Part shown: in pieces, positions 3,666 to 20,583 of the stretch | Layout of the letters: every line of letters begins with the position of its first letter | How positions within the stretch are numbered: position 1 is the first letter of the stretch | Assembly: GCA_964429865.1 (NCBI GenBank) | Contig: CAYSDK010000001.1 | Span: 1 to 60,892 of the forward strand | DNA length: 60,892 nucleotides | From: an uncultured bacterium | GTDB lineage: Bacteria; Methylomirabilota; Methylomirabilia; Methylomirabilales; CSP1-5 | Direction: 5' to 3' | Program-made: the position numbers and the translations under genes | Notes under the pieces: generated by a model | What the model saw: only the letters and a program-made list of their open reading frames with translations | What the model was told of the DNA's origin: nothing | Database searches by the model: none

Positions 3666-4547
3666 ATGACGGGCGAAGCGGCGCTGAGGACGGACATTAA
3701 GGTCATCGGCGTGGTCGGGGCTGGGACCATGGGTCACGGCATCGCCCAGGTGGCCCTGCAGTCTGGATTGCAGGTTTTCCTGCACGATCTGGAAGAGGCG
3801 ATTCTGAAGCGGGCCCGAGAGCGCATCGCGGCAGGCCTTGCCAAGGGGGTGAGGAGGGGAAAGTTCGGCGAGGACGAAAAGGAAGAAATGCTCAAGGGGC
3901 TCGTCCTCACGATCACCCCGTTGGATCTATCCGCCGCCGACTTTGTGATCGAGGCGGTCATCGAGGACTTGGCCGTCAAGCGGACCCTATTTCAGGACCT
4001 GGACCGGATCGCGAGACCCGAAGTCATCCTGGCCACCAACACCTCCTCACTCCCCATTACAAAAATCGCCTCGACGACCTCCCGGCCATTCCAAGTCATC
4101 GGCATGCACTTTTTCAACCCGGTCCCGCTGATGCCCTTGGTCGAGGTGATCCGCGGGCTCGCCACCGCTGACGAGACGGTCACGGCCACGGTCCGGCTGG
4201 CAGAGCGACTCGGGAAGACCCCGGTGGAGGTCCGCGACAGTCCCGGCTTCATCTCGAGCCGCATCCTTGCATCCATGGTCAACGAAGCGTGCTATCTTCT
4301 CATGGAGGGGGTCGGCACCGCCGAGGCGATCGACACCGTGATGAAGCTGGGGGCCAACCATCCGATGGGCCCGTTGGCGCTCGGCGATCTGATCGGCCTC
4401 GACGTCTGCCTGGCCGTCATGCGGACGCTGTACGAGGGGATCGGCGATCCCAAGTACCGTCCCTGCCCCCTGCTGGTCCAGATGGTGGACGCGGGGTATC
4501 TGGGGCGAAAGAGTGGGCGGGGGTTTTACACCTACGAGAAGGGCTAG
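3666..4547 (+). CDS. hbd: 3-hydroxybutyryl-CoA (3-hydroxyacyl-CoA) dehydrogenase, NAD-binding
   Basis: N-terminal Rossmann motif IGVVGAGTMGHGIAQ. HFFNPVP motif. C-terminal 3HCDH domain (MGPLALGDLIGLD). Confidence 0.9.
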   Translation: MTGEAALRTDIKVIGVVGAGTMGHGIAQVALQSGLQVFLHDLEEAILKRARERIAAGLAKGVRRGKFGEDEKEEMLKGLVLTITPLDLSAADFVIEAVIEDLAVKRTLFQDLDRIARPEVILATNTSSLPITKIASTTSRPFQVIGMHFFNPVPLMPLVEVIRGLATADETVTATVRLAERLGKTPVEVRDSPGFISSRILASMVNEACYLLMEGVGTAEAIDTVMKLGANHPMGPLALGDLIGLDVCLAVMRTLYEGIGDPKYRPCPLLVQMVDAGYLGRKSGRGFYTYEKG

Positions 4548-4551
4548 CGAC

Positions 4552-5334
4552 GTGGAGTACAAGCATCTCATCTATGAGGCGGCTTCTGGGATCGCCACCA
4601 TCACGCTGAACCGCCCGAAGGTCATGAACGCCCTGAGCCTGGCGCTCGCTCGGGAGCTCCTGCAGGCCGCCACCCGGGCCGAAGGCAATCCCGCCATCCG
4701 TGCCCTGATTGTCACCGGCGCCGGCGAGAGGGCCTTTGCCGCCGGAGCAGATATCGCTGCCTTCAGGAACATGGGCGCGGGAGAGGCCCTGGGCTTTCTC
4801 ACAGAGGTCCAGGCCGTGATGAATCGGATCGAACGGCTGAAGAAGCCGGTCCTGGCCGCCGTGAACGGGTATGCGCTGGGCGCCGGCTGTGAGCTGGCCA
4901 TGGCCTGCGACATGATCTATGCCGCCGAGACGGCGAAGTTCGGCCTGCCGGAGGTGAATCTGGGGATCATCCCGGGCGGGGGCGGGACCCAGCGCCTCCC
5001 CCGTCGTGTCGGAGGTGCGCGGGCGAAGGAATTGATCTATACCGGCGAGATGATCGACGCGCAGGAGGCGTACCGGATCGGCCTGGTGAACAGGGTGTTC
5101 CCTGCCCCAGAGCTCATGGCCGGGACGAGGAAGCTGGCCGAAAAGATCGCCCTCAAGGGCGCGGGTGCGATCGAATCCGCCAAGAAGGCTATCACCGAGG
5201 GGGCGGACCTCGATCTCAAGCGGGCACTGGCGCTCGAGGCCAAGGCCTGCGCGCTGTGCTTTGACACCGAGGACAAAACAGAAGGGGTGAGCGCCTTCCT
5301 CGAGAAGCGGGAGCCCCGCTTCAAGGGAAGATAG
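4552..5334 (+). CDS. crt: enoyl-CoA hydratase (crotonase family)
   Basis: [25 protein letters not shown] and [16 protein letters not shown] motifs. The start is set at GTG 4552, just after the hbd stop; the longer ORF from 4513 would overlap hbd. Confidence 0.88.
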
Positions 5335-5346
5335 GCGGGGAGGGGC

Positions 5347-6486
5347 ATGGATCTCGGGTTGAGCCCACGGCAGGAGATCTTCCGGGACATGGTCCGGGAC
5401 TTTGCCGAGACAGAGGTGGCGCCCCGGGCCGCCGCCGTCGATGCAGAGGCGCGTTTCCCCGCCCAGACGATCAGGATGATGGGAGCGCTCGGCCTCATGG
5501 GGGTCGCCATCCCGGAAGAGTATGGCGGAGCGGGCGCGGATACGATCTGCTATGTCATCGCCATTGAGGAGATCAGCCGCGCCTGCGCCTCCACCGGGGT
5601 TATCATGTCGATCAATAACTCCATGGTCTGCGACCTCGTCCACAAGTTCGGCGATGAGCGGCAGAAGCGACGGTTCTTGATCCCTCTCGCCCGGGGTGAG
5701 CAGCTGGGCTGTTTCTGCCTGAGCGAGCCCGACGCCGGCTCCGATGCGGGCAATCTGCGCGTCACCGCGCTGGCCGAGGGCGATCACTTCGTCCTGAACG
5801 GAGTCAAGAATTTCATCACGAACGGCCGCGAGGCGGATATCGCCATCGTGTTCGCCACGGTCGACCGCCAGCTCAAGCACAAGGGGATCTCTGCCCTGGT
5901 CGTCGAGAAGGGGACGCCGGGATTTCAGGTGCTCAAGGAGGAGAGCAAGCTGGGGGTCCGGGGCAGCAGCACGTGCCAGCTTCTCTTCGAGCATTGCCGG
6001 GTCCCCCGGGAGAACCTCCTGGGAGAGATCGGCGAGGGCTTCAGGATCGCCATGGCCTCCCTCGATGGAGGCCGGATCGGGATCGCCGCACAGGCGGTCG
6101 GAATCGCCCGCGCCGCCCTCGAGGCCTCTCTCCAGTACGCCCGGGGCCGCGTCCAGTTCGGAAGGCCCATCGCCTCCTTTCAGGCCATCCAGTTCCTCCT
6201 CGCGGATATGGCGACCCGCGTCGATGCCGCGCGTCTCCTCACCTACCGGGCCGCCTCTCTGAGAGATTGCGGGGCCCCATACACCGCGGAGGGCTCCATG
6301 GCCAAGCTCTCTGCGTCGGAGGTCGCCATGTGGGTGACCACCAAGGCCATCCAGATCTATGGGGGATACGGGTATATCACTGACTACCCGGTCCAGCGCC
6401 ACTTCCGGGACGCGAAGGTCACCGAGATCTACGAAGGGACTTCAGAGATCCAACGGCTGGTCATCGCCGAACATCTCCTGGGATAG
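5347..6486 (+). CDS. short-chain (butyryl-type) acyl-CoA dehydrogenase
   Basis: ACAD N/M/C domains: CFCLSEPDAGSDA, KNFITNG, and YEGTSEIQRLVIA at the C-terminus. Good SD. Confidence 0.9.
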   Translation: MDLGLSPRQEIFRDMVRDFAETEVAPRAAAVDAEARFPAQTIRMMGALGLMGVAIPEEYGGAGADTICYVIAIEEISRACASTGVIMSINNSMVCDLVHKFGDERQKRRFLIPLARGEQLGCFCLSEPDAGSDAGNLRVTALAEGDHFVLNGVKNFITNGREADIAIVFATVDRQLKHKGISALVVEKGTPGFQVLKEESKLGVRGSSTCQLLFEHCRVPRENLLGEIGEGFRIAMASLDGGRIGIAAQAVGIARAALEASLQYARGRVQFGRPIASFQAIQFLLADMATRVDAARLLTYRAASLRDCGAPYTAEGSMAKLSASEVAMWVTTKAIQIYGGYGYITDYPVQRHFRDAKVTEIYEGTSEIQRLVIAEHLLG

Positions 6487-6509
6487 CCCCTGGAAGAATC
6501 GGGGACGTG

Positions 6510-7307
6510 ATGCGCATCGTCGTCTGTGTCAAACAGGTCATCGACCCAGAGCTTCCCGCCAGTCAGTTCCGCATCGATGCGGAGTCCAAACGGCAGCGGC
6601 CGAATGGCCACCCCCTCGTCATCAGCCCGTATGACGAGAATGCCCTGGAGGTTGCCCTCACGCTTAAGGAGAAGACGGGCGGCACGGTAGCGGTGGTGAG
6701 CGCGGGGGAGCCGTCGGCGATCAGCGCGCTTCGCAAAGGGCTCGCCATGGGCGCGGACGAGGCCGCCTTGATCAGCGATCCCGCCCTCGCCGGATCGGAT
6801 GCCTTCGGCCTCGCCGTCGCCTTGGCCCGCGGGATACAGAAACTCGGCACCCCCGATCTGGTCCTGTGCGGCTGTGAGTCCGGGGACTGGGCCGACAGGA
6901 CCGTGGGTCCCATCCTGGCCGAGGCGCTCGATATCCCATGCGTCTCCTTTGTGGCCCAGGTGGAGGCGCAGGACGGCCGGCTGCGCATGCGGCGCGTCGT
7001 GGAGGAGGGCTACGAGATCTGGGAGGGCGCGCCACCTCTGTTGCTCACCATTCTCAGTCACGAGTCGAATGTCCCCAGGTATCCAAAGGTCAAGGACATC
7101 ATGACCGCCTCCCGGCGATCGATCCCGACGTGGTCAGCCGGCGACCTGGGCGTCGAGGCCGGCGATATTGGGAAGGCGGCCATGCGAACAGAAGTCCAGC
7201 AGCTCACGCTTCCGAGTCGAGAGTCCCGCTGTGAGTTGCTGGACGGCCAGCCGGCGCAGCAGGTCACGACCCTGATCACGAGACTCCGCGAGCGGAAGGC
7301 GATCTAG
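6510..7307 (+). CDS. etfB: electron transfer flavoprotein beta subunit
   Basis: MRIVVCVKQVIDPE N-terminus typical of EtfB. A GTG at 6507 is an alternative start. Confidence 0.9.
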   Translation: MRIVVCVKQVIDPELPASQFRIDAESKRQRPNGHPLVISPYDENALEVALTLKEKTGGTVAVVSAGEPSAISALRKGLAMGADEAALISDPALAGSDAFGLAVALARGIQKLGTPDLVLCGCESGDWADRTVGPILAEALDIPCVSFVAQVEAQDGRLRMRRVVEEGYEIWEGAPPLLLTILSHESNVPRYPKVKDIMTASRRSIPTWSAGDLGVEAGDIGKAAMRTEVQQLTLPSRESRCELLDGQPAQQVTTLITRLRERKAI

Positions 7308-7309
7308 CC

Positions 7310-8290
7310 ATGCCCGGCATCCTTGTCCTCGGCACGATCGAGAACGGGGTCCCATCCCGCTCAACACTGGAGCTCTTGACCGGCGCGAAGAGACTCGCTG
7401 CGGGGCTTCAGGAAGGTGTCTCTGTCGGACTCCTGGGGCCAGGGGGTGCGGCGTCGCTGTACCGTTACGGGGTCGAAGTCGTCTACCGGGCCAATGATCC
7501 GCTCCTGAAGGAATATCAGGCGGATCTGTACCTGCTGGCGCTCCAGCGGATCGCCCAGGCCGCCGGCGCCAGGGTTCTCCTGCTGCCCGGAGACTCCCTC
7601 GGCCGGGACCTCGCCGCTCGCCTCGCCTTTCGCCTCAAGGCAGGCGTCGTCACGGACGTGATCGAGATTGACATCGAGGGCTCCGAAAAGATGCCGCGCT
7701 TCACACGCCCCGCGTACGGGGGCAAAGCGGCGGCGGTCATCGTTCCCAAGCGCTTTCCCGTCGTAGTGACCTTGAAGCCGCGGACCTTCGATCCCGCTGG
7801 ACCTGCGGGCCAGGGGGAAGGGAAGGAGGTCCCGGTCGAGATCTCATTGGATCCGGCCCAGGCCCGCACCCGGATGGTGGAGCGGGTCCAGGAGGAGACG
7901 ACGGGGGTCAAGCTCGAGGATGCACGGGCGGTGGTCTCCGGTGGCCGTGGACTCGGAGGGCCCGAGGGCTTTACCCTCCTGGTAGAGTTAGCCCGCATCC
8001 TTAAGGGGGCGGTGGGGGCGTCCCGGGCTGCGACCGATGCCGGGTGGGTTCCCTCATCGATGCAGGTCGGCCAGACCGGCAAGACCGTCAGCCCGGATCT
8101 CTATATCGCCGTGGGCATCTCGGGTGCGACCCAACATGTCGCGGGGATCAGCGGCGCCAGGACCATTGTGGCCATCAACGCCGATCCGGAGGCCCCCATC
8201 TTCAAGGTGGCTCACCTGGGGATCGTGGGGGATTACAAGGCCGTTCTCCCTCCCTTGATTGCGAAGTGCCGGGAACTCATGGGGAGTTGA
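7310..8290 (+). CDS. etfA: electron transfer flavoprotein alpha subunit
   Basis: C-terminal FAD-binding signature [28 protein letters not shown]. Directly follows etfB. Confidence 0.9.
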
Positions 8291-8293
8291 AGC

Positions 8294-10267
8294 ATGGAGC
8301 GCATCGCCTCGCGGGAGATCTACTGGAACATCCCGGAGCACCTGCTTCTCTACGTGCTGCTCCTGCCTTTCCTTGCTGTCTTCCTGTACGGGTGCTACCG
8401 ACGCTTTGGTGCTCTCCTGCTGGGGAGGAAGGGGGTACGGCTTGGTCAGCCGAAGGAGCGCCTGAAGGCCTTTGTTGCCCAGGCCCTCCTGCAAGGGCGG
8501 ATCGCCACAGAGCGGTATTCAGGGGTCATGCATCTCACCCTTTCCTGGGGATTTCTCGTCCTCTTCATTGCCACCACTCTCGTGGCCTTTCAGGACTACT
8601 TCGGCCTTCCCGTCCTCCAGGGTCGCTTCTACCTCTACTTCATGTCACTCACCGTGGACCTCTTCGGCGTCGCGGCGCTCTTGGGGACGCTGATGGCGGT
8701 CCTCCGGCGCTTCCTCCGTCCTCCGGCCCGCCTGGTGGAGCCGCGGCACGCCGACGGTTTCGGCTGGCTCCTCCTGCTCTTCTTAGCCGTCCTGGTGACT
8801 GGATTCCTCGTCGAGGGGCTCCGGATCATGGCGACGGCCGACCCATGGGGACCCTGGTCACCCGGAGGGTGGGTGACGGCGCTCCTCTTCCGGGGCATCG
8901 GCGTCGAGTATGCCCGGGCCTTTCACCAGGTCCTCTGGTGGGTCCATGCCGCACTCTCGTTCGGTTTCATTGCGGCGATTCCCTATACCGGCGTGCTTCA
9001 TCTCCTCACCGCCCCCGCCAACATCTTCCTGCGAAACCTCGAGCCCTCGGGTGTCGCAAGCCCCTTGGCGGTCGAGGCAGAGAAGCTCGGGGCCTCTTCG
9101 ATTCGGGATTTCTCATGGAAGGCGCTTTTGGATCTATACGCCTGCACCGAGTGTGGCCGATGCCAGGCGGTCTGTCCCGCCTGGACCACGGGAAAGCCCC
9201 TCACCCCCAAGGGGGTCATCCTCGATCTCCGGGACCACTTGACCAAGGTGTACCGGGGCGAGGAGACGCGGCGCATGGTGGGCGAGGTGATCACCGAGGA
9301 TGTCCTCTGGGCCTGCACGACGTGCGGGGCGTGCCATGAAGCCTGTCCGGTCCTGATCGAACCGATTCCGAAGATCCTGGAGATGCGCCGGCACCTGGTG
9401 ATGGAAGAGGCGACCTTCCCGGAGCAGATGCAAGAGACCCTCCGGAGCCTGGAGACGCGCGGGCACCCTTATAAGGGGGTAAGCGCCGGACGGACCGACT
9501 GGACCAAAGGGTTGCGGATTCCAGAGGCGGCGAAGCTCAAAGAGGTCGAGCTGCTCTTCTGGGTGGGCTGTGCGGGCGCCTTTGACGAGCGAGGGCAGCA
9601 GGTCACCCGGGCGATGGCGCAGGTGCTGGAGGCGGCGGAGGTGGAGTTCGCAATCCTGGGCAATGAAGAGCGGTGCACCGGAGATCCGGCCCGGCGGATC
9701 GGGAACGAGTATCTCTTTCAACTCCTCGCCCAGGAGAATATCGCAACACTCAATCGCTACCGGGTGAAGAAGATCCTGACCACCTGCCCGCACTGCTTCA
9801 ATACGATGAAGAACGAGTATGGCCAGTTCGGCGGGGAGTTCGACGTGGTGCACCACAGCCAGTTCATCGCCCACCTGCTGCGGGAGGGGCACCTGGGCCT
9901 GCGAAAACGATTCAGCGGGACGGTGGCCTTTCACGATCCGTGCTACCTCGGCCGCCACAACGGGATCTACGATGATCCGCGGTCGGTGATCGATCACTTT
10001 CCAGGGCTGCAGCGGGTGGAGATGCCCCGATGTCGCGAGAAGGGGTTTTGCTGCGGCGCCGGCGGCGGACTGATGTGGATCGAGGAGCGGATCGGCAAGC
10101 GAATGAATCTTGAGCGAACGGACGAGCTCCTGCAGACGGGAGCGGCGGTGGTGGCCACGGCCTGCCCGTTCTGCCTGACGATGATGACCGACGGCATCAC
10201 CGTGCGCGGGAAGAACCTCGCGGTCAAGGCGTTAGACCTGGCGGAACTGGTGGTGCGCGCGTTGTGA
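8294..10267 (+). CDS. membrane-anchored Fe-S oxidoreductase (NarI/DsrM-like TM domain fused to an HdrD/GlpC-like 2x[4Fe-4S] + two CCG domains); probable Etf:quinone oxidoreductase
   Basis: N-terminal ~250 aa contain several hydrophobic helices with conserved His. Ferredoxin motifs [12 protein letters not shown] and [15 protein letters not shown]-type motifs [16 protein letters not shown] and CPFCLTM. Located immediately after etfBA. Confidence 0.8.
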
Positions 10268-10273
10268 TAGTGC

Positions 10274-10322
10274 AGGACTCAGGACTGAGGGATGAGGACT
10301 GAGGGATGAGTGACCTGAGGTG
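10274..10322 (+). repeat. heptanucleotide tandem array A (7 in-phase heptads)
   Basis: The heptads are aggactc aggactg agggatg aggactg agggatg agtgacc tgaggtg. The array ends 4 nt before the ATG at 10327, and the last heptad supplies the SD-like GAGGTG. Confidence 0.85.
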
Positions 10323-10326
10323 ATAC

Positions 10327-11244
10327 ATGAGGATTGTGTCGTTATTGCCCAGCGCGACGGAGATCGTCTATCTGCTGGGACTGGGGGATCACCTCACCGG
10401 AGTGAGCCACGAGTGTGATTATCCCCGGGCGGCGCTTGGCAAGCGCAAGATCATTGCCCCTGCCTTCGAGAGCTCCGGGCTCAGCAGTCAGGAGATCGAC
10501 GGCAGTGTCCGGGCCTTCCTGGGGCGAAATGAGGGGATCTATCGGATCGATTTCGAGGCCTTGAAGGCGGCCGATCCCGACCTGATTGTGACCCAGGAGC
10601 TGTGTGATGTCTGTGCCGCCCCTTACCAGGATGTCGTGGAGGCGGCGACACACCTTTCGCGAAAACCCGAGATCCTTTCCCTGAACCCGCACCGTCTCGG
10701 GGATGTGCTCCAGGATGTCGAGCGGGTCGGGGAGGCGACGGGACGATTCCGCGAGGCAACGCAGGCTGTCGCCTCGCTCACCGAACGGATCGATCGCGTC
10801 GAGAAGCGGGCGGCCAACGCCAAGACCCGGCCACCCGTGGCGTGTCTGGAGTGGCTGGACCCGATCATGGCCTCGGGCCACTGGGTCCCAGAGATGGTGG
10901 CCCTGGCTGGCGGCAGAGAACCACTCGGAAAGGCGGGGGAGCCATCGGAACGGGTGCAGTGGGAGCGGGTCCTCTCCTGTGCACCCGAGATCCTGATCCT
11001 CATGCCCTGCGGCTTTTCCGTAGATCGGACTCTGGACGAGATCCACCTCTTGACCAATCGTCCGGGCTGGGAGGGCCTGCCGGCAGTGAGGCGGGGCAAG
11101 GTCTTTGCCGTGAACGGTCACGCCTACTTCAGCCGATCGGGACCGCGCCTGGTGGACGGAACCGAGATCTTGGCTCATCTCGTGCATCCGGAACTCTTCC
11201 GGGACCCGATTCCGGCAGGGGCAGCAACAACCGTTGACCGATGA
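10327..11244 (+). CDS. BtuF/FecB-type (periplasmic-binding-protein fold, cobalamin-binding-like) protein without a signal peptide
   Basis: It starts directly with the first strand-helix of the fold (MRIVSLLPSATEIVYLLGLGDHLTGVSHECDYP). No hydrophobic or basic leader and no lipobox. 305 aa. Confidence 0.7.
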   Translation: MRIVSLLPSATEIVYLLGLGDHLTGVSHECDYPRAALGKRKIIAPAFESSGLSSQEIDGSVRAFLGRNEGIYRIDFEALKAADPDLIVTQELCDVCAAPYQDVVEAATHLSRKPEILSLNPHRLGDVLQDVERVGEATGRFREATQAVASLTERIDRVEKRAANAKTRPPVACLEWLDPIMASGHWVPEMVALAGGREPLGKAGEPSERVQWERVLSCAPEILILMPCGFSVDRTLDEIHLLTNRPGWEGLPAVRRGKVFAVNGHAYFSRSGPRLVDGTEILAHLVHPELFRDPIPAGAATTVDR

Positions 11245-11298
11245 CCGGGGACCGATGACCGATGACGGATAACCGACGGCCGATGAACGATGACCGGG
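11236..11298 (+). repeat. heptanucleotide tandem array B (9 in-phase heptads, consensus GACCGAT)
   Basis: The heptads are gaccgat gaccggg gaccgat gaccgat gacggat aaccgac ggccgat gaacgat gaccggg. The array spans the TGA stop at 11242-11244 and the first codons of the mutase ORF. Confidence 0.85.
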
Positions 11299-12983
11299 AA
11301 GAGATAAAGCGGATCGAGGAAGCCGCGAGGGCCTGGGAAGCTGAAGTCCTGGATCCCGCGCTCGAGAGGTCGCCCGAGCGGGCCCGGGAGTTCCGGACCG
11401 TTTCGGGGCACCCCATCCGCAGGCTCTATACGCCCACCGATCTCGCCGACTTCGACTACACCCGAGACCTCGGCTTTCCGGGCCTCTCTCCCTTTACGCG
11501 GGGTGTCTACCCGACCATGTACCGGGGCAGGCTCTGGACCATGCGGATGTTCGCTGGGCACGGGGCCCCTGAGGAGACGAATCGGCGGTTCAGGTATCTC
11601 CTGGCACAGGGGCAGACCGGTCTGTCGGTCGCCTTTGACCTGCCCACCCTGATGGGGTACGACTCGGACCATCCGATGTCGCGAGGGGAGGTGGGGAAGT
11701 GCGGGGTGGCCGTCGACTCGCTGGCGGATATGGAGATCCTCTTCGACGGGATTCCGCTCCAGGACGTTACCACCTCGATGACCATCAACTCTCCGGCCGC
11801 GGTGCTCTGGGCCATGTACCTCGCGGTCTGCGAGAAACAGGGGGTGCCCTACGACCGCATCGGCGGCACCCTCCAGAATGACATCCTCAAGGAGTTCATC
11901 GCACAGAAGGAGTACGTCTTTCCCATCGAGCCCTCGATGCGCCTCGTGGTGGATACGATCCTCTTCGGGGCCCGACATCTGCCCCGGTGGCATGCGGTCA
12001 GCATCAGCGGCTATCACATCCGAGAGGCGGGGTCCACCGCGATCCAGGAACTGGCCTTTACGGTGGCCGACGGCATGGCGTATGTCGAGGCCACCATGAA
12101 GGCGGGGCTCGACGTCGATGCCTTCGCCCCTCGCCTCTCTTTCTTCTTTAATGTCCACAACGATTTCTTTGAAGAGATCGCCAAGTTTCGGGCCGCCAGG
12201 CGCGTGTGGGGGAAACTCATGCGAGAGCGGTACGGGGCAAAAGATCCGCGATCCTGGCTGCTCCGGACCCACGCCCAGACGGCGGGATGTGCGCTCACCG
12301 CCCAGCAACCGTACAACAACGTCGTTCGGGTAGCCATGCAGGCCCTGGCAGCAATCCTGGGCGGGGTGCAGTCACTCCACACCAACGCCCTGGATGAAAC
12401 GCGGGCCCTTCCCACCCAGGAGGCGGCGACGATCGCGCTCCGGACCCAGCAGATCATCGCTCACGAGACCGGGGTGACCCACACCATCGACCCCGTGGGG
12501 GGATCGTACTTCGTCGAAAGCCTCACGCGGGAGATCGAGGAGGAGGTCTGGAGCTATCTCCACAAGATCGATGACCTGGGGGGCATGGTCCGGGCGATCG
12601 AGCAAGGCTTCCCCCAGAAGGAGATTGTCGATGCCTCCTACCGGTACCAGCAGATGGTCGAGGCGGGGGAAGAGGTGGTGGTCGGCGTGAACCGGTTCGT
12701 CGCCGGGGCGGAGGAGCCGGTCTCCCTCCTTCGCATCGACCCGGAGCAGATTGCGGAGCAGCAGGTGGAGAGGATTCACCGCCTGAAGGGACGCCGGGAT
12801 AACGGAGGGGTCCAGAAGGCTCTGGACGGCCTCCGAAGGGCGGCAGAGGGGGAGGATCCCTGGGGTCAGGACCTCCTCATGCCTCGGATCCTCGAGGCGG
12901 TGCGGGCGTATGCAACCCTGGGAGAGATCATGGGGGTCTTTCGAGAGGCGTGGGGGGAGTACGTCGAAGCCGCCATCCTCTGA
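11262..12983 (+). CDS. B12-dependent acyl-CoA mutase, large (substrate-binding TIM-barrel) subunit; methylmalonyl-/isobutyryl-CoA mutase family
   Basis: Family motifs [51 protein letters not shown] and LHTNALDE. The start is ambiguous because it lies in heptad array B; an in-frame ATG also occurs at 11283. Confidence 0.88.
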
Positions 12984-13119
12984 TTGTCCATTGACGATCC
13001 AGTGAAAATGCGCTTTAAAGAGAGAAGGCGCTGTCTGCTTCAGGCAGCGGTGGATGACCACAAGCGGGGGGAAGGCGACCGGGGCCCTCTGCCAAGGATC
13101 GCCCCAGCTGAGCGATGCG

Positions 13120-13527
13120 ATGAGTGAAGAACGGAAGATCCGTGTCTTGGTGGCGAAACCGGGGCTCGACGGCCATGACCGGGGTGCCAAGGTGATTGCC
13201 CGGGCGTTCCGGGACGCGGGGTTCGAAGTGATCTATACCGGCCTTCGGCAGACGCCGGAGATGATCGTCAGCGCCGCGATCCAGGAGGACGTGGATGCCA
13301 TCGGCCTCTCCTGCCTCTCGGGAGCCCATATGTATCTCTTCCCCCGGATCGTAGAGCTGCTCCGTGAGCGTGGCGCGGACGATGTCGTCGTCTTTGGAGG
13401 CGGGACGATTCCCGACGAGGACATTGCAACCCTCAAGGAGGCAGGGATCGCCGAGATCTTTACTCCGGGAACCTCGACGTCGGTGGCAATCGATTACGTT
13501 CGGACGCACGTCCGCCAGCGGGCGTGA
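13120..13527 (+). CDS. acyl-CoA mutase small subunit (cobalamin-binding domain)
   Basis: [24 protein letters not shown] contains the DxHxxG B12-binding motif. GVSSL-type SCLSGAH and GGGTIP motifs. The ORF is open from 13054; the start is placed at ATG 13120 by comparison with typical N-termini. Confidence 0.85.
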
Positions 13528-13556
13528 CCTTCCGGCGTGAGAGACGGGGAAGTGGG

Positions 13557-14870
13557 ATGAGGCCCGTCTATGCGGTCTCGGGTGGTGTGTGCAAGTTCGC
13601 CAGGGCCCGCCCCGACCTCGACTTCCGGGGGATGGTCAAGGAAGCCTACGATTACGCCCTCACGGATCTCCACCTGACCCCCCAACACGCGCGGGAGATC
13701 GTCGACGGGACGATCTGCTCGTACTTCTCCGACCACTTCACCCGACAACTCAAGGCCGGCAGCATGGTGCAGGATTATCTCGGGCTCTGCCCCAAGCCTG
13801 GCAAGCGCATCGAAGGGGGGGGCGCGACGGGGGGCCTGGCCGTCCAGTCGGGCTGGGAGGCGGTGGCGTCGGGCCGGTTCGATATCTGCGTGGTGTACGG
13901 CTTCGAGACCATGTCGCGCGTCAATACCTGGAAGGGGAACGAGTTCATCGCCTTGGCCTCCGACACGAATTTCGATTACCCCGTCGGCGGCTTCTACTCC
14001 GGATACTACGCGATGATGGTGGTCCGCCACATGAAAGAGTTCGGGACCACCGTGGAGCAGATGGCGCTGGTGTCGGTCAAGAACCATCACAACGCCCTCC
14101 ATAACCCGTATGCCCAGAAACGGAGGCAGATCACGATCGAGGACGTGCGCCGGGCCGAGATGGTGGCCTGGCCGCTGACGATGCTTGACATTTGCGTCAT
14201 GTCGGACGGGGCGGCGGTGCTCATCCTCTGCAGCGAAGACGGGCTCAATACCTTGCACAGGGCCACGGGACGCACCCCGCTCCCTGCCAAGATTACCGGG
14301 GTGGGCGGTGGTCTCGACGCCATGCGGATGGCGGACCGGCCCCACGGGGAGGTGATTCTCCTGCCCCATGAGAGGCCGGAAGACTATCGGGGGCTGAAGT
14401 ATCCCGGGGTTCACTCCTTCCGGGCCGGGCGCGTGGCCGCCAAGGCCGCCTATCAGATGGCTGGAATCACGAATCCCCTTGAAGATTTAGACTTCATCGA
14501 GCTGCACGATGCCTACACCTCCTCAGAGGTCCAGACGTACGAGGACATGGGGCTCTGCAGGTACGGTGAGGGCGGAAAGTTCATCGAGAGGGGTACGCCC
14601 TTCATGCCGGCGGTCGATTACGGGTACCATTTCCCGGAACAGGGCCGGATCCCGATCAATCCCTCGGGTGGACTCATCGCCTGTGGCCACCCGGTGGGGG
14701 CGACCGGAATCATGCAGGGAGTGTTTGCCCTGTGGCAGCTTCAGGGGAGCATCCGCACGCACTTCGGGAGCGATGTCCTCCAGGTGAGGAATGCGAGGCG
14801 TGGAGCGATTCACAGCCACGCGGGCACCGGGACCTACGTGGTGATCTCGATCCTGGAAAGGGGCGACTGA
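13557..14870 (+). CDS. thiolase-fold (SCP-x/lipid-transfer-protein type) protein, apparently lacking the nucleophilic Cys
   Basis: SCP-x-type thiolase features: LDICVMSDGAAVLIL, NPSGGLIACGHPVGATG and HSHAGTG. At the position of the usual -ACASG- nucleophile loop the sequence is RIEGGGATGG. The start is set at ATG 13557, which has an upstream GGGGAAGTGGG SD. Confidence 0.75.
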   Translation: MRPVYAVSGGVCKFARARPDLDFRGMVKEAYDYALTDLHLTPQHAREIVDGTICSYFSDHFTRQLKAGSMVQDYLGLCPKPGKRIEGGGATGGLAVQSGWEAVASGRFDICVVYGFETMSRVNTWKGNEFIALASDTNFDYPVGGFYSGYYAMMVVRHMKEFGTTVEQMALVSVKNHHNALHNPYAQKRRQITIEDVRRAEMVAWPLTMLDICVMSDGAAVLILCSEDGLNTLHRATGRTPLPAKITGVGGGLDAMRMADRPHGEVILLPHERPEDYRGLKYPGVHSFRAGRVAAKAAYQMAGITNPLEDLDFIELHDAYTSSEVQTYEDMGLCRYGEGGKFIERGTPFMPAVDYGYHFPEQGRIPINPSGGLIACGHPVGATGIMQGVFALWQLQGSIRTHFGSDVLQVRNARRGAIHSHAGTGTYVVISILERGD

Positions 14871-14904: not shown

Positions 14905-15432
14905 GTGAGCGAGAACCGTGTGCCAGAGGAAGAAGAGGGGGCGGTCCTCTTCAGGGTACCGCTTCCGAAGGACCCGGGGGCGCTCAAGGACCTGACGCCC
15001 CTGATCATCAAGCACCACTATGAGATCGATTACATTCACAGCTACGCGCAGGACAGCCCCTTCTTTGCCGGGCTGGCCAACCAGCGACTTCTGGGGACCC
15101 GGTGCGGCAGCTGCAACTACACCTACGCGACACCGCGAGCGCATTGTATGGAATGCGGGCGACAGTGCGACTGGGTGGACCTTCCCCACGAGGGGCAGAT
15201 CCATACCTTTACCGTGTGTCACTACGGCAGTGAAGAGTTCCTGAAAGAGACCCCCTTCATTCTCGCCCTCATTGAGTTTGCCGGCGTGGATACCCTCTTC
15301 TTGACTCGGGTGGTCGGGCTCGACCCACAGGCCTCTTCGCTCGACTGGATCGGCATGGCCGTCAAGGCCAAATTCCGCCGGCTCTCCACGTTCCGTCCCA
15401 CCGACGTCTATTTCGTCCCCATCGGAACCTGA
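14905..15432 (+). CDS. DUF35 OB-fold / zinc-ribbon protein (thiolase-partner family)
   Basis: Zinc ribbon CGSCNYTYATPRAHCMECG followed by an OB-fold-like region. This is the typical pairing immediately downstream of an SCP-x-type thiolase-like gene. GTG start. Confidence 0.75.
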   Translation: MSENRVPEEEEGAVLFRVPLPKDPGALKDLTPLIIKHHYEIDYIHSYAQDSPFFAGLANQRLLGTRCGSCNYTYATPRAHCMECGRQCDWVDLPHEGQIHTFTVCHYGSEEFLKETPFILALIEFAGVDTLFLTRVVGLDPQASSLDWIGMAVKAKFRRLSTFRPTDVYFVPIGT

Positions 15433-15600: not shown

Positions 15601-16752
15601 ATGGACTTCACGCTGAACGAGACGCAACGGGCAATCCAAGGGGTGGTCAGAGACTTTGCACGCCGGGAGATCATTCCGAAGGCGGCGGGGTACGATCAGC
15701 GGGAGGAGTTTCCTTGGGAGATTATCCGAGGTGCGGCGAGCCTCGGCCTTCTCGGGATCCTGGTGCCGGAGGGGTATGGTGGGGCCGGGATGGACTACGT
15801 GAGCTACGTGGCTATCCTCGAAGAGCTCGGTCGGGCCGATGCCTCTGTTGCCCTCACCGTCGAGGCGCATAATTCGCTAGCCGTCAACCAGATCCTCCTC
15901 TTCGGAACCGAGGAGCAGAGGCGGCGGTATCTCCCCCCATTGGCGAGGGGAGAGATGCTTTCGGCCTGGGCCCTTACAGAGCCGAGTTCGGGAAGCGACG
16001 CGGCCGCGATGCGCACCACGGCCGTCCGTCAGGACGACGCCTATGTGCTCACCGGGACCAAAAACTTTATCACCTCCGGAAGCATCGCCGGGGTGTATGT
16101 GGTTCTAGCCCTCAGCGACCCGACCCGCGGCTCCCATGGCATCTCTGCCTTTATCCTGGAAAGGGGGGCGCCCGGATTCTCTGTGGGTCGGCGAGAGAAG
16201 AAGCTGGGGGTCCGCGCCAGCGACACCGCCGAGCTCATCCTGGATCATGTGCGCCTTCCGGCGGAGAACCTCCTGGGAAAGATGCACCATGGGTTCATCG
16301 ACGCCCTCCAGGTCCTGGACGGCGGGCGGATCGGCATCGCCGCCCTGGCCGTCGGGTTAGCCAGGGCGGCCCTGGAGGAGAGCATCGCGTACAGCAAGCA
16401 ACGGGTGCAGTTCGGCCAGCCGATCAGCGCATTTCAAGCCATCCAATTTAAGCTCGCAGACATGGCGACCGCCATCGACGCCGCGCGTCTCTTGACCTAC
16501 CGCGCTGCCCTGCTGGCAGATCAGGGAAAGCCCTTCACCAAAGAGGCGTCGATGGCCAAGGTCTATAGTGCCGAAGCGGCCGTGGCGGCGGCGATCCAGG
16601 CGATCCAGATCCACGGGGGGTACGGGTACACGGTCGAGTATCCGGTCGAGCGCTATCTCCGGGATGCCAAGCTCTGCGAAATCGGTGAGGGCACCTCGGA
16701 GATGCAGCGCCTCATCATCGCGCGAGAGATCGTGGGCCGGGAGTATGTGTAA
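15601..16752 (+). CDS. acyl-CoA dehydrogenase (second, paralogous short/branched-chain type)
   Basis: ACAD motifs [18 protein letters not shown] and [13 protein letters not shown]. Paralog of 5347..6486. Confidence 0.9.
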
Positions 16753-16841: not shown

Positions 16842-17780
16842 GTGGAGATCGTTGAAAGGATCCGACGGCAGGATGTCCGGGCGATCGCCCGTCTGATGTC
16901 CCTCGTCGAGAATAATGCCCCCGAGGCCACCGCCGCCCTGAAGGAACTCTACCCGATCACCGGACAGGCGTTCATCGTGGGGATCACCGGTCCACCGGGC
17001 TCCGGGAAGAGCACCCTGACCGATCAGCTCACGAAGGAGTTTCGCCGGGACGGAAAGACCGTCGGGATCATCGCCGTGGATCCCACCAGCCCCTTTACGG
17101 GGGGGGCGATTCTGGCCGACCGCATCCGGATGCAGCAGCACAGTCTCGATGCAGGGGTCTTCATCAGGAGCATGGCCACGCGAGGGCACCTCGGGGGGTT
17201 AGCCAAGGCCACGGGCGACGTGGTGAACGTGCTGGATGCGGCGGGGAAAGAGCTGATCCTCGTGGAGACCGTCGGGGTGGGCCAGGATGAGGTCGAAGTG
17301 GTCAAGACGGCCGATACGTGCGTCGTTGTCAGCGTCCCCGGTCTCGGGGACGATGTTCAGGCGATCAAGGCCGGGATCCTGGAGATCGCCGACATTTTCG
17401 TGGTCAACAAGGCGGACCGCGAGGGCGCGGACAAGACGGTGACAGAGCTCCAGGCCATGATGGGACTTGGCCCGGGGCGTTCGGACTGGAGCCCGCCCAT
17501 CCTGAAAACGGTCGCCACCCAGGGGCAGGGCATCGCCGAGTTGGCGCAGGGAATTTTCGCCCATCGGGCCCATCTGGACCGACGGGGCCTGCGGCAGATG
17601 CGCCAGCGCGAGCGGAGTCGTGCCCTCTTCCTCGAGCTGCTCCAGGAGCAGGGGACCCGGCGCCTGCTGGAGCGGGCGAGCGCCAACGGAACCCTTGAGC
17701 AGACGATCGAGCGCATCGCCAAGCGAGAGATGGACCCGTATTCCGCGGTCGAAGAGCTGCTCGCCAAGGCGGGCCTTTGA
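16842..17780 (+). CDS. meaB: MeaB/ArgK-type G3E GTPase (B12 mutase chaperone)
   Basis: P-loop GITGPPGSGKSTL, ETVGVGQ switch and VVNKADR motifs. GTG start with a GGGGA SD. Confidence 0.88.
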   Translation: MEIVERIRRQDVRAIARLMSLVENNAPEATAALKELYPITGQAFIVGITGPPGSGKSTLTDQLTKEFRRDGKTVGIIAVDPTSPFTGGAILADRIRMQQHSLDAGVFIRSMATRGHLGGLAKATGDVVNVLDAAGKELILVETVGVGQDEVEVVKTADTCVVVSVPGLGDDVQAIKAGILEIADIFVVNKADREGADKTVTELQAMMGLGPGRSDWSPPILKTVATQGQGIAELAQGIFAHRAHLDRRGLRQMRQRERSRALFLELLQEQGTRRLLERASANGTLEQTIERIAKREMDPYSAVEELLAKAGL

Positions 17781-17853: not shown

Positions 17854-18822
17854 ATGAAGATCCTTGCCTCGGGGGAAAGCGTCTACCACTGGGTCCACCC
17901 CGACGACTTTCGGGAGTGGGTCCGCCTGCACAAGAGTCGGGAGGCGACCGACAAGCTCATGACGGAACACGAGGCCGTCTCCCGCTTTGTGGCGGACGGG
18001 GACTACCTCGCCTACGATTTTTCTTCCCTCACCCGTGGTCCACAAGCCCTGGTCCGAGAAATCATCCGACAGCGCAGGCGGCACCTCTGGATCTGCGCCG
18101 AGTTTACCCTCCACGAGTCCGCATTACTGGTCGGCGCCGGGTGTGCCGATCGGATCGACGTGGGATTTTTGGGATACGGGGATTACATCGGGCGGGCGGT
18201 CGTGGAAGGAAGGGTGCGGGTCTTTGAATGGACCAACGGGGCCTTGGCCGCGCGGATGCTCGCCGGGGCGAGAGGACTTCCCTTCATGCCGATGCGAAAC
18301 CTTGTGGGAACGGATACCTTCGTCCGATCCGGAGCCAGGGTGGTGGCAGACCCCTTTGGCGCCGATCCCGTCTGCCTGGTCCCGGCGCTGCATCCGGATG
18401 TCTTCATCGTGCATGTCCACCAGGCGGACATCTCCGGGAATGCCCGCATCTTCGGGACCAACCTCTTTGCGCTGGAGGCGGCCATGGCCTCGAAGAAGGT
18501 GATCGTCTCTGCCGAGGAGATCGTCGATCCGCTCGAGTTTCGGAAGGAGCCGGCAAAGACGACGATCCCCCACTTCCTGGTCAGCGCCGTCGTGCACTTG
18601 CCGTTCGGGGCATATCCAGGTGGGGTGCCGGGGAGGTACGAGCTGGACCTCGAGCAAATCCAGCAATTGAACGCGATCGAGACTGAGGAACAGGTGCAGG
18701 CGTATCTCGAGGCCTTCGTGTACAGCGTGCGGTCCCACGCCGAACTGCTGGAGCAGAAAGTGGGGTGGGGACGGCTGGCGGACATGATCCGACGGGGGTC
18801 CATCAAAGAGGGATACTCGTAG
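17854..18822 (+). CDS. CoA-transferase subunit A (glutaconate/3-oxoacid CoA-transferase family I)
   Basis: The N-terminus MKILASGESVY...EAVSRFVADGDYLAYDF and the overall length fit GctA-like alpha subunits. The longer ORF from 17620 overlaps meaB and was trimmed. Confidence 0.75.
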   Translation: MKILASGESVYHWVHPDDFREWVRLHKSREATDKLMTEHEAVSRFVADGDYLAYDFSSLTRGPQALVREIIRQRRRHLWICAEFTLHESALLVGAGCADRIDVGFLGYGDYIGRAVVEGRVRVFEWTNGALAARMLAGARGLPFMPMRNLVGTDTFVRSGARVVADPFGADPVCLVPALHPDVFIVHVHQADISGNARIFGTNLFALEAAMASKKVIVSAEEIVDPLEFRKEPAKTTIPHFLVSAVVHLPFGAYPGGVPGRYELDLEQIQQLNAIETEEQVQAYLEAFVYSVRSHAELLEQKVGWGRLADMIRRGSIKEGYS

Positions 18823-18841: not shown

Positions 18842-19639
18842 GTGACCGACACCATGGCCCGATTCACCGAGACCGAGTGCATGATCTGCCTCGCCGCCCG
18901 CCTGCTCGAAGACCGGAAGACGGTCTTCGTCGGCTGGGGCATTCCGCAGGTCGTGGCCATGCTGGCCGAGAGGCTGTACACCCCGAACCTCATCCAGGTC
19001 TTCGAGTTTGGCGCGATCGGTCCGCGGTCCCTGACCCCCTTTGTCCGCGGGACCATGGGGGGGCCTTCCAATGTCTATCGGTCGCTGCAGTGGACCACCA
19101 TGAACTGGGCCTTTGCCTACGCCGCCACCGGATATCTGGATTACGGAATGATCGGGGCGCTGCAGGTGGACCCGTACGGCAACGTGAACTCGACGCTGCT
19201 GGGGGGCAGTTACGACCGACCGAAACGGCGGTTCCCGGGAAGCGGGGGAGGGAACGAAGTTGCCTCGCTCTGCTGGAAGACGATCGTCGTGTTGAAGCAC
19301 GAGCCGCGTCGCTTCGTGGAGCAACTCGACTTCATGACCTCGCCGGGCTACCTGACCGGACCCGGGGCGCGGGAAGCCGCCGGTCTCCCCCGGGGAACCG
19401 GGCCCTACCGCGTCGTCACGTCGCAAGCCCTCTTTGGTTTTGACGACGAGACGAGGCACATGCGGCTCCTCGGCGTGTTGCGGGGACTGTCGGCGGATCA
19501 GGTGACTCGCGGGATGGGCTTTGCGCCCGTGGTGGCGGAAAAGGTCGAAGTGCTCGAGCCGCCGACGCGGGAGGAGTTGGCCGTCCTGCGCGAGGCAATC
19601 GATCCGTCGCGCATGATCATCGGGCGAGATGCCGGATGA
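18842..19639 (+). CDS. CoA-transferase subunit B
   Basis: ECMICLAARLLEDRKTVFVGWGIP... is the typical beta-subunit N-terminus. It follows subunit A. An alternative ATG lies at 18854. Confidence 0.75.
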   Translation: MTDTMARFTETECMICLAARLLEDRKTVFVGWGIPQVVAMLAERLYTPNLIQVFEFGAIGPRSLTPFVRGTMGGPSNVYRSLQWTTMNWAFAYAATGYLDYGMIGALQVDPYGNVNSTLLGGSYDRPKRRFPGSGGGNEVASLCWKTIVVLKHEPRRFVEQLDFMTSPGYLTGPGAREAAGLPRGTGPYRVVTSQALFGFDDETRHMRLLGVLRGLSADQVTRGMGFAPVVAEKVEVLEPPTREELAVLREAIDPSRMIIGRDAG

Positions 19640-20583
19640 CTCGCAGGGCGCCTTCACACGCAGGTGGGATAACCATAGGGCGGCCTGCGGGGGCTCGTGA
19701 CACGCCTGGAAGAAGGGGAGGGTTCGCCGAGCGCCTCGCCCGTCGGCTGCTCTACGCCGACGGAGCCGTCGGGACGATGCTGGTCGACAAAGGGCTCGGG
19801 CCAGACGAGCCCCCCGAGCTCTGGAATCTCACCCGGCCACGGGTGATCCAGGGGATCCACAGGGCCTATCTGGCCATCGGCTGCGATCTGGTGACCACGA
19901 ACACCTTTGGGGCGAACCGTCTCCGGCTCAAGGAGCGCCGGCTCCATGCCGAGGTCGCAACCATCAACAGGACGGCAGTCCATCTCGCGCGCAGGGCCTG
20001 CAGCCCCCGACACTTCGTCGCTGGCGGGGTGGGCCCGACGGGGCGCTTTGACCGGGGGAGGCATAGCGGATCACCGGCCGAGATCAGATCGGCGTTCCAG
20101 GAGCAGATTGCACACTTGAGCGAAGCCGGTATCGACCTGATCCTTGTCGAAACCATGACCCACCTCGCCGAGGCGCGGATGGCGCTTGAGGCCGCCCAGG
20201 CGTGTCCGCCGGTTCCGGCCGCAGTCAGTCTGGTCTTTTTTGCGCAGCGGGGCGACTTCCGCACGCTGGACGGCGCGTCGCCGGCGGAGGCGGTCCGTGA
20301 GCTTTCCACCGCTCAGGTAGTGGGATGCAATTGCGTGGATGTCGAGGTCGCGGTTGAGGTCCTGCGGCAGATGCGGGAGGCGACAGGGCTGCCCCTGATC
20401 GCCCAGCCGAATGCGGGGCTCCCAGAGAGGCGGGGAAAGAGATGGATCTATCCGTTCGGCCCTGAAGCTCTGGCTCGCTCTATGCCGTCCATGCTTGCGT
20501 CACGACCGGCGATCCTCGGAGGCTGCTGCGGAACCACCCCGGCTCACCTCCAGGCCTGCATGCAGGCTGCCCGCACCCGGTGA
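19636..20583 (+). CDS. homocysteine S-methyltransferase domain protein (stand-alone Hcy-binding/Zn domain, MmuM/MetH-N-like)
   Basis: LLYADGAVGTML, VTTNTFGAN, and Zn ligands in VVGCNCVD and GGCCGTTPAHL. Its ATG overlaps the upstream stop (ATGA). Confidence 0.75.
   Translation: MTRRAPSHAGGITIGRPAGARDTPGRRGGFAERLARRLLYADGAVGTMLVDKGLGPDEPPELWNLTRPRVIQGIHRAYLAIGCDLVTTNTFGANRLRLKERRLHAEVATINRTAVHLARRACSPRHFVAGGVGPTGRFDRGRHSGSPAEIRSAFQEQIAHLSEAGIDLILVETMTHLAEARMALEAAQACPPVPAAVSLVFFAQRGDFRTLDGASPAEAVRELSTAQVVGCNCVDVEVAVEVLRQMREATGLPLIAQPNAGLPERRGKRWIYPFGPEALARSMPSMLASRPAILGGCCGTTPAHLQACMQAARTR

Follow-up and report, generated by a model that had tools for sequence, protein, structure and literature searches.

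Isobutyryl-CoA mutase (ICM; EC 5.4.99.13) of Streptomyces is built from split subunits, IcmA and IcmB, and the S. cinnamonensis enzyme has been characterized. The 2-hydroxyisobutyryl-CoA mutase (HCM) of Aquincola tertiaricarbonis, HcmAB (PDB 4R3U), is also split, and IcmF of Cupriavidus metallidurans (PDB 4XC6) is a fused ICM-MeaB. Methylmalonyl-CoA mutase (MCM), known from P. shermanii MutB (PDB 1REQ), human MUT (PDB 2XIJ), and the split MCMs of Bacillota and archaea, has the same fold. In Syntrophothermus lipocalidus, isobutyrate is accepted to be degraded by way of an ICM cluster with MeaB (Slip_0757-0760; PMC5017805). We analyzed a stretch of 60,892 nucleotides (the window) from contig CAYSDK010000001.1 of an uncultured Methylomirabilales bacterium (assembly GCA_964429865.1; 1.8 Mb, 93.6% complete). 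The window encodes a split acyl-CoA mutase that is probably an adenosylcobalamin-dependent ICM-type enzyme (IcmA/IcmB-like; 11262-12983 and 13120-13527), predicted from its residues and gene context to interconvert isobutyryl-CoA and n-butyryl-CoA. An earlier reading of the same DNA, made from the letters alone (the sequence-only reading), had already recognized the split architecture, which was borne out by a large subunit (TIGR00641) followed by a B12-binding small subunit that ends at position 13527 (TIGR00640). The genes and motif of the predicted enzyme are as follows.

11262..12983, + strand, acyl-CoA mutase large (substrate-binding) subunit, predicted ICM type, IcmA-like (573 aa, TIGR00641)
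13054..13527, + strand, B12-binding small subunit, IcmB-like (TIGR00640, 178 bits over residues 27-155)
13168-13185, + strand, cobalamin motif DxHxxG (DGHDRG) of the small subunit, read from the sequence
16842..17780, + strand, MeaB-type G-protein chaperone for the mutase (TIGR00750, 359 bits, cut-off 241)

Profile searches gave the large subunit 782 bits with TIGR00641 and 645 bits with the MCM equivalog NF006944, which is under the cut-off of 876 for a model that describes the fused form. Among PDB entries, the large subunit scored 608 bits with HcmA, 504 with human MCM, 489 with MutB, and 275 with IcmF. The 5' end of its open reading frame (11236-11298) has several in-frame ATGs inside a GACCGAT-type repeat. 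Most orthologues are 564-566 aa long, so translation may begin at ATG 11283 rather than at 11262. The small subunit likely starts at ATG 13120, giving 135 aa, which is the length of its orthologues.

The window enzyme shares with Streptomyces IcmA/IcmB the split subunits, the Phe/Gln active-site pair, AQKE, Cys139, Ala at the site of the HCM Asp, and DxHxxG. It reads RMFAGHG where the Streptomyces proteins read RQFAGFG, and its subunit genes are adjacent within a catabolic beta-oxidation/electron transfer flavoprotein (Etf) operon with MeaB, whereas icmA stands alone in the Streptomyces loci seen. IcmF is alike in predicted chemistry and in its Phe/Gln pair, but is a single polypeptide with B12, G-protein, and substrate domains, whereas the window has three separate genes; the window enzyme reaches 337 bits against the IcmF model NF045497, for which the cut-off is 1500. 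The S. lipocalidus enzyme, a split ICM with a MeaB-like protein that acts on isobutyryl-CoA to form butyryl-CoA before beta-oxidation, matches the catabolic role proposed for the window enzyme. Its cluster additionally encodes an adenosyltransferase, which was not seen beside the window mutase.

Active-site residues of the large subunit

Phe and Gln in place of Tyr89 and Arg207 are the hallmark of ICM. In MCM structures, the substrate carboxylate is held by Tyr89 and Arg207, and in the Streptomyces enzyme Phe80 and Gln198 are the ICM determinants. The MutB Tyr89 site was pinpointed with a pair of PDB entries, 1REQ (wild type) and 5REQ (Y89F mutant). In alignments to the window protein, these two differ at a single site, wtirq[Y/F]agfs, which makes Tyr89 the opening residue of the (Y/F)AGFG loop. 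By chain count, MutB has Tyr at 88 and Arg at 206, or 89 and 207 with Met1 included. The sites compared in the window protein are listed below.

11520..11522, + strand, Tyr87 (PTMY), equivalent of MutB Tyr79 (codon TAC)
11550..11552, + strand, Phe97, MutB Tyr89 site, ICM-type residue (codon TTC; flanked by Met96 and His100)
11631..11633, + strand, Ala124 (SVAFD), site of HcmA Asp117 (STDFD) in the HcmA alignment
11904..11906, + strand, Gln215, MutB Arg207 site (codon CAG; motif FIAQKEY; gap-free alignment to MutB)

The sequence-only reading had placed Gln at the MutB Arg207 position (codon 11904-11906), and the gap-free alignment agrees, with CAG encoding Gln215. It had also held that the Tyr89 equivalent is retained, as the tyrosine of TMY at 11520-11522. 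That tyrosine instead corresponds to MutB Tyr79, and the true Tyr89 site is Phe97. The FAGHG loop that it described is indeed present, but the start of the loop is itself the Tyr89 site and reads Phe. Its argument from a "mixed signature" thus falls away, as the signature is plain Phe/Gln, the standard ICM pair. Reading the PTMY tyrosine as Tyr89 yields false mixed signatures. The Tyr79 equivalent is Tyr in MCMs, HcmA, and Streptomyces ICM-type proteins alike, and in nearly all aligned family members whatever their signature, so Tyr87 is uninformative about the substrate.

Elsewhere in the active site, the equivalents of MutB Tyr243/His244 (Tyr251/His252), Gln197 (Gln205), Gln330, and Asn366 are conserved. 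In a coordinate mapping to IcmF, Gln215 falls on chain residue 762, or Gln742 on the assumption of a 20-residue His-tag offset. For Phe97 the calculation yields 619 where 618 was expected, and the mapping is not clean. The hydroxyl-binding Asp of HCM was not found at its aligned site, which is Ala124. The Phe/Gln pair with Ala at the HCM Asp site reads as the canonical ICM pattern.

HcmA is the top PDB match of the large subunit, and it shares Gln at 207 and the AQKEY motif with the window protein. A 3-hydroxyacyl-CoA dehydrogenase gene also lies within the window. These features would suit an HCM/RCM-like enzyme that interconverts 2-hydroxyisobutyryl-CoA and 3-hydroxybutyryl-CoA. However, HcmA has Ile89, Asp117, and Ala198, where the window protein has Phe, Ala, and Asn, and the first two of these replacements disfavor HCM. 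HcmA groups in a separate clade in all trees, and the window showed no 2-hydroxyacyl-CoA lyase or 2-HIBA-CoA ligase. We consider an HCM function very unlikely.

Conservation and phylogeny

To place the Phe/Gln signature in the wider family, DNA encoding WT.RQFAGFG was searched for in one genome per prokaryotic species, which gave at least 120 loci. The second motif was readable in 101 of the 120 loci listed and has Gln207 in 100 of them and Lys in one. Several Streptomyces are among these loci, reading GTLQTDIFKEYIAQKEW. In MutB numbering, the window protein and the Streptomyces ICM-type proteins have Phe89, Ala116, Cys139, and Gln-Lys-Glu 207-209 in common, and they differ (window/Streptomyces) at positions 88 (Met/Gln), 92 (His/Phe), 119 (Leu/Met), 198 (Asn/Thr), and 334 (Cys/Val). 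Split Phe/Gln mutases labeled "methylmalonyl-CoA mutase" are widespread.

Conservation near the window was followed in the 120 closest homologues (67-99% identity). All named sources among the nearest homologues belong to candidate division NC10/Methylomirabilales, and the closest is NC10 bacterium CSP1-5 (95% identity). The first motif was readable in 113 of the 120, and every one of these has Phe; the residue that follows RMFAG is Tyr in 73, His in 32, and Phe in 8. The other seven lie outside the search pattern for this motif. AQKE is kept in all 120. With this degree of conservation, the Phe/Gln signature does not appear to be a chance feature. Of 42 genomes sampled from this order, about 31 hold orthologues of at least 67% identity. 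Across the remainder of the phylum, the best matches have 59-65% identity and are indistinguishable from the MCM paralog. No IcmF was found among 151 sampled genomes of the phylum, so any ICM activity there would need to come from this split enzyme; nor was IcmF found on a Paraburkholderia chromid.

Two other large-subunit paralogs occur in the same genome, both with Tyr/Arg, and MCM function is therefore already covered elsewhere in the genome. One, on contig C49 (locus L001), comes after a biotin carboxylase gene, in keeping with a route through propionyl-CoA carboxylase and MCM; the locus is partly masked (N/X). The other, on contig C14 (locus L003, 5857-7419, - strand), adjoins an acyl-CoA dehydrogenase and a true thiolase. 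Although it keeps Tyr/Arg, the C14 paralog reads SLALSCFDE for the usual SLHTNxxDE, with loss of the His and Asn near the substrate, and it also reads RQYAGMG. It may act on a different carboxylated substrate.

Phylogenetic trees were constructed with FastTree and with IQ-TREE (LG+G4), and all Tyr/Arg proteins fall on one side. This side holds P. shermanii MutB, human MUT, both paralogs from the source genome, and a Brevibacillus MCM whose gene adjoins mce (epimerase) and a carboxyltransferase. The NC10 clade falls in the Gln207 group, with a UFBoot value of 88 in IQ-TREE and support of 0.90-0.99 in FastTree. In the FastTree and LG+G4 trees, its neighbors are QFF proteins of Acidobacteriota, with Streptomyces ICM-type proteins and HcmA in an adjoining sub-clade. 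A second tree was built under the site-heterogeneous LG+C20 model with the two motif regions removed. There, support for the NC10 clade is 100/100, and it stays outside the Tyr/Arg MCM clade with support of 93/91. The P. shermanii and human MCMs group together at 100/100, far from the window protein, in this tree and in the LG+G4 tree. In no tree does the window protein nest inside verified MCMs, the placement that the sequence-only reading had named as evidence against itself. The deep branching order is genuinely weak, and the NC10 clade appears to sit near the divergence of MCM and ICM.

An earlier tree of the 150 best representatives placed the NC10 clade as sister to split MCMs. We treated this as a sampling artifact because that tree held almost no RQFAGFG-type sequences, and adding named Phe/Gln loci changed the result.

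Databases name the homologues methylmalonyl-CoA mutase, and the window protein shares 63% identity with a Tyr/Arg paralog of its own genome and 61% with the epimerase-adjoining Brevibacillus MCM. A genuine MCM is nevertheless extremely improbable. Both carboxylate-binding residues are replaced (Tyr89 by Phe, Arg207 by Gln), the equivalog score is below its cut-off for the fused form, the trees place the protein outside the Tyr/Arg clade, and no epimerase or carboxyltransferase was found near the window mutase in a genome that has two Tyr/Arg paralogs elsewhere. Cluster look-ups of the homologues returned no function-identifying names. The sequence-only reading had argued for a noncarboxylated acyl-CoA in place of methylmalonyl-CoA, and the Gln at 207, the tree placement, and the paralogs all agree with it. 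Its open list of candidate substrates can be shortened, as Phe/Gln narrows the choice to isobutyryl-/butyryl-CoA. Judged by these comparisons, MCM, HCM, and IcmF each fail in a defining feature, and the two specificity residues, subunit architecture, and chaperone of ICM are all in place.

Gene neighborhood and proposed pathway

The mutase genes lie in a string of genes on one strand, in the order hbd-crt-acd-etfB-etfA-oxidoreductase-BtuF-like-mutase large subunit-mutase small subunit-thiolase-like-DUF35-acd-meaB-CoA-transferase A-B. The members of this string that flank the mutase and meaB genes are listed below.

3666-4547, + strand, 3-hydroxyacyl-CoA dehydrogenase, hbd (Pfam)
4513-5334, + strand, enoyl-CoA hydratase, crt (Pfam)
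5347-6486, + strand, short-chain/butyryl-CoA-type acyl-CoA dehydrogenase, the first acd (Pfam, PDB matches)
6507-7307, + strand, EtfB (Pfam ETF)
7310-8290, + strand, EtfA (Pfam ETF, ETF_alpha)
8294-10267, + strand, membrane Fe-S/CCG oxidoreductase (Pfam CCG, Fer4, Nitrate_red_gam)
10327..11244, + strand, BtuF-like Peripla_BP_2 protein directly upstream of the mutase (Pfam PF01497)
13524-14870, + strand, thiolase-fold protein without both thiolase cysteines (6ESQ alignment, Pfam)
14905-15432, + strand, DUF35/ChsH2-type OB-fold zinc-ribbon protein (Pfam)
15601..16752, + strand, second short-chain/butyryl-CoA-type acyl-CoA dehydrogenase (PDB matches)
17854-18822, + strand, family-I CoA-transferase subunit A (Pfam CoA_trans)
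18842-19639, + strand, family-I CoA-transferase subunit B (Pfam CoA_trans)

The first dehydrogenase scores 459 bits with Bcd (5OL2_C), 452 with SCAD, and 277-310 with IVD, and the second scores 420 with 5LNX, 400 with 5OL2_C, 372 with 1BUC, 369 with SCAD, and 290-325 with IVD. By these scores, both appear closest to Bcd/SCAD and not to IVD. EtfB, EtfA, and the membrane Fe-S oxidoreductase presumably carry electrons between the dehydrogenases and quinone. The CoA-transferase probably activates the free acid. The BtuF-like protein, whose gene also adjoins the mutase in locus L010, may handle cobalamin for the mutase. Pfam scans of the mutase cluster found no carboxylase or HMG-CoA lyase. A gene with a homocysteine S-methyltransferase domain (19636-20583) follows the CoA-transferase.

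Gene order is largely preserved in two relatives. In Candidatus Methylomirabilis limnetica (locus L006), the order crt-acd-etfB-etfA-oxidoreductase-mutase large subunit-mutase small subunit-thiolase-like-DUF35 is kept. Locus L010, whose mutase carries Tyr/Gln, keeps the mutase, the BtuF-like protein, the small subunit, the thiolase-like protein, DUF35, acd, meaB, and the CoA-transferase. It also has two MetE-like (Meth_synt) genes between meaB and the CoA-transferase (9352-11356). More widely, some 110 Phe/Gln loci spread over many phyla were surveyed by tblastn with the window's neighbors, in arbitrarily placed 8-kb windows around the motif. IcmB was found at 41 of these loci, MeaB at 18, Acd at 13, Crt at 10, Hbd at 8, and EtfAB at 6-7. 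The neighborhoods of homologues P0135, P0125, and P0121 are fragmentary and uninformative.

In the pathway that these genes suggest, the CoA-transferase would load the free acid, and the mutase would interconvert isobutyryl-CoA and n-butyryl-CoA by a 5'-deoxyadenosyl-radical 1,2-shift of the thioester carbon, with MeaB (16842-17780) as its G-protein chaperone. Because Phe97 and Gln215 replace the two carboxylate-holding residues of MCM, the pocket is predicted to be apolar and fit for an uncharged C4 acyl group. The two SCAD/Bcd-type dehydrogenases would then oxidize butyryl-CoA, with EtfAB and the membrane Fe-S oxidoreductase relaying their electrons to quinone, and the hydratase and 3-hydroxyacyl-CoA dehydrogenase of the same gene string would take the product onward. 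The physiological role of such a pathway would be to supply the beta-oxidation of butyrate with carbon from isobutyrate or valine.

A cysteine-less thiolase-like protein and alternative substrates

The two genes that follow the mutase encode a thiolase-fold protein and a DUF35 protein. Aligned with 6ESQ, the thiolase-like protein reads RIEGGGATGG for RVEAACASGS and HDAY for HDCF, and the nucleophile Cys is replaced by Gly100 (codon 13821-13823). The pair is also found 3' of the mutase genes in L006, L010, and a third locus, L017. A thiolase fold combined with DUF35 is an architecture known from the Ltp2-ChsH2 aldolase. These findings suggest a non-thiolytic partner reaction for the pair. The pathway may thus depart from textbook butyrate oxidation in its final steps or even in its true substrate.

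Several observations weigh against isobutyryl-CoA as the substrate or against the ICM assignment itself. First, with a thiolase-like protein that lacks the catalytic cysteines, the last step of the pathway is not explained by the cluster itself. Second, identity to the Streptomyces ICM-type proteins is ~54%, lower than to the Tyr/Arg paralog in the same genome (63%). The position of the NC10 clade near the MCM/ICM divergence would explain why identity to this paralog is higher than to the Streptomyces proteins or to HcmA (52%). Third, ICM is represented in the trees by Streptomyces ICM-type sequences taken from genome loci. In the LG+C20 tree, moreover, a group with 96/94 support unites the NC10 clade with the Acidobacteriota QFF proteins, P0121, and MCM, and its inner order is not resolved. 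Fourth, the NC10 clade has Met, not Gln, before the Phe and His or Tyr, not Phe, three residues after it. These residues, Met96 and His100 in the window protein, are Met88 and His92 in MutB numbering, positions held by Gln and Phe in nearly all of the rest of the family. Fifth, two orthologues from the same operon type, P0118 (L010, 991-2691) and P0120, both among the seven outside the first-motif pattern, carry Tyr/Gln (RQYSGFG with AQKE). Position 89 is therefore not fixed within the NC10 clade. Finally, IcmF-type enzymes are promiscuous toward C5 substrates.

The Tyr/Gln variants are nested within the Phe/Gln clade. Gene conversion from the MCM paralog was considered as their source and rejected, as the variant reads RQYSGFG, not RQYAGFG, and its flanks are NC10-like.

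These points bear on an ICM-fold mutase with another uncharged substrate, either a C5 pair (pivalyl-/isovaleryl-CoA or 2-methylbutyryl-/valeryl-CoA) or an acyl-CoA whose product goes to the thiolase-like/DUF35 pair, for example in a retro-aldol cleavage of a 3-hydroxyacyl-CoA. Such an enzyme would accord with the NC10-specific Met96 and His100 (His/Tyr/Phe across the clade) beside the specificity residue, with the Tyr/Gln sub-variant in the same operon type, and with the Ltp2-ChsH2-like pair after the mutase genes. IcmF, in addition, converts pivalyl-CoA and isovaleryl-CoA slowly. However, pivalyl-CoA is favored by an enlarged pocket, as in IcmF F598A, and the window enzyme retains Phe. Both acyl-CoA dehydrogenases are far more Bcd/SCAD-like than IVD-like, which speaks indirectly against a pivalyl-CoA/isovaleryl-CoA mutase (PCM) such as that of Xanthobacter autotrophicus, the cluster has no carboxylase or HMG-CoA lyase, and the wider Phe/Gln family is associated with Hbd, Crt, and Acd. 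We regard a substrate of this kind as a serious candidate, although an unlikely one.

A more specific proposal is that the NC10 mutase and the thiolase-like/DUF35 pair form one short-chain acyl-CoA module that ends non-thiolytically, for example by an Ltp2-like retro-aldol reaction of a 3-hydroxyacyl-CoA, or that acts on a substrate other than isobutyryl-CoA. Such a substrate would fit the Met88/His92 changes and the Tyr/Gln sub-variant, but the proposal as a whole is distinctly doubtful. An ICM-type enzyme for isobutyryl-CoA and n-butyryl-CoA is the assignment that we prefer.

Implications for Methylomirabilales

Under this assignment, a protein labeled MCM would be reannotated as ICM type. 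Members of Methylomirabilales are predicted to use a B12 enzyme, beside a separate true MCM, to bring carbon from isobutyrate or valine into the oxidation of butyrate. This would bear on how far a phylum known chiefly for nitrite-dependent methane oxidation can live heterotrophically and on how much cobalamin it needs.

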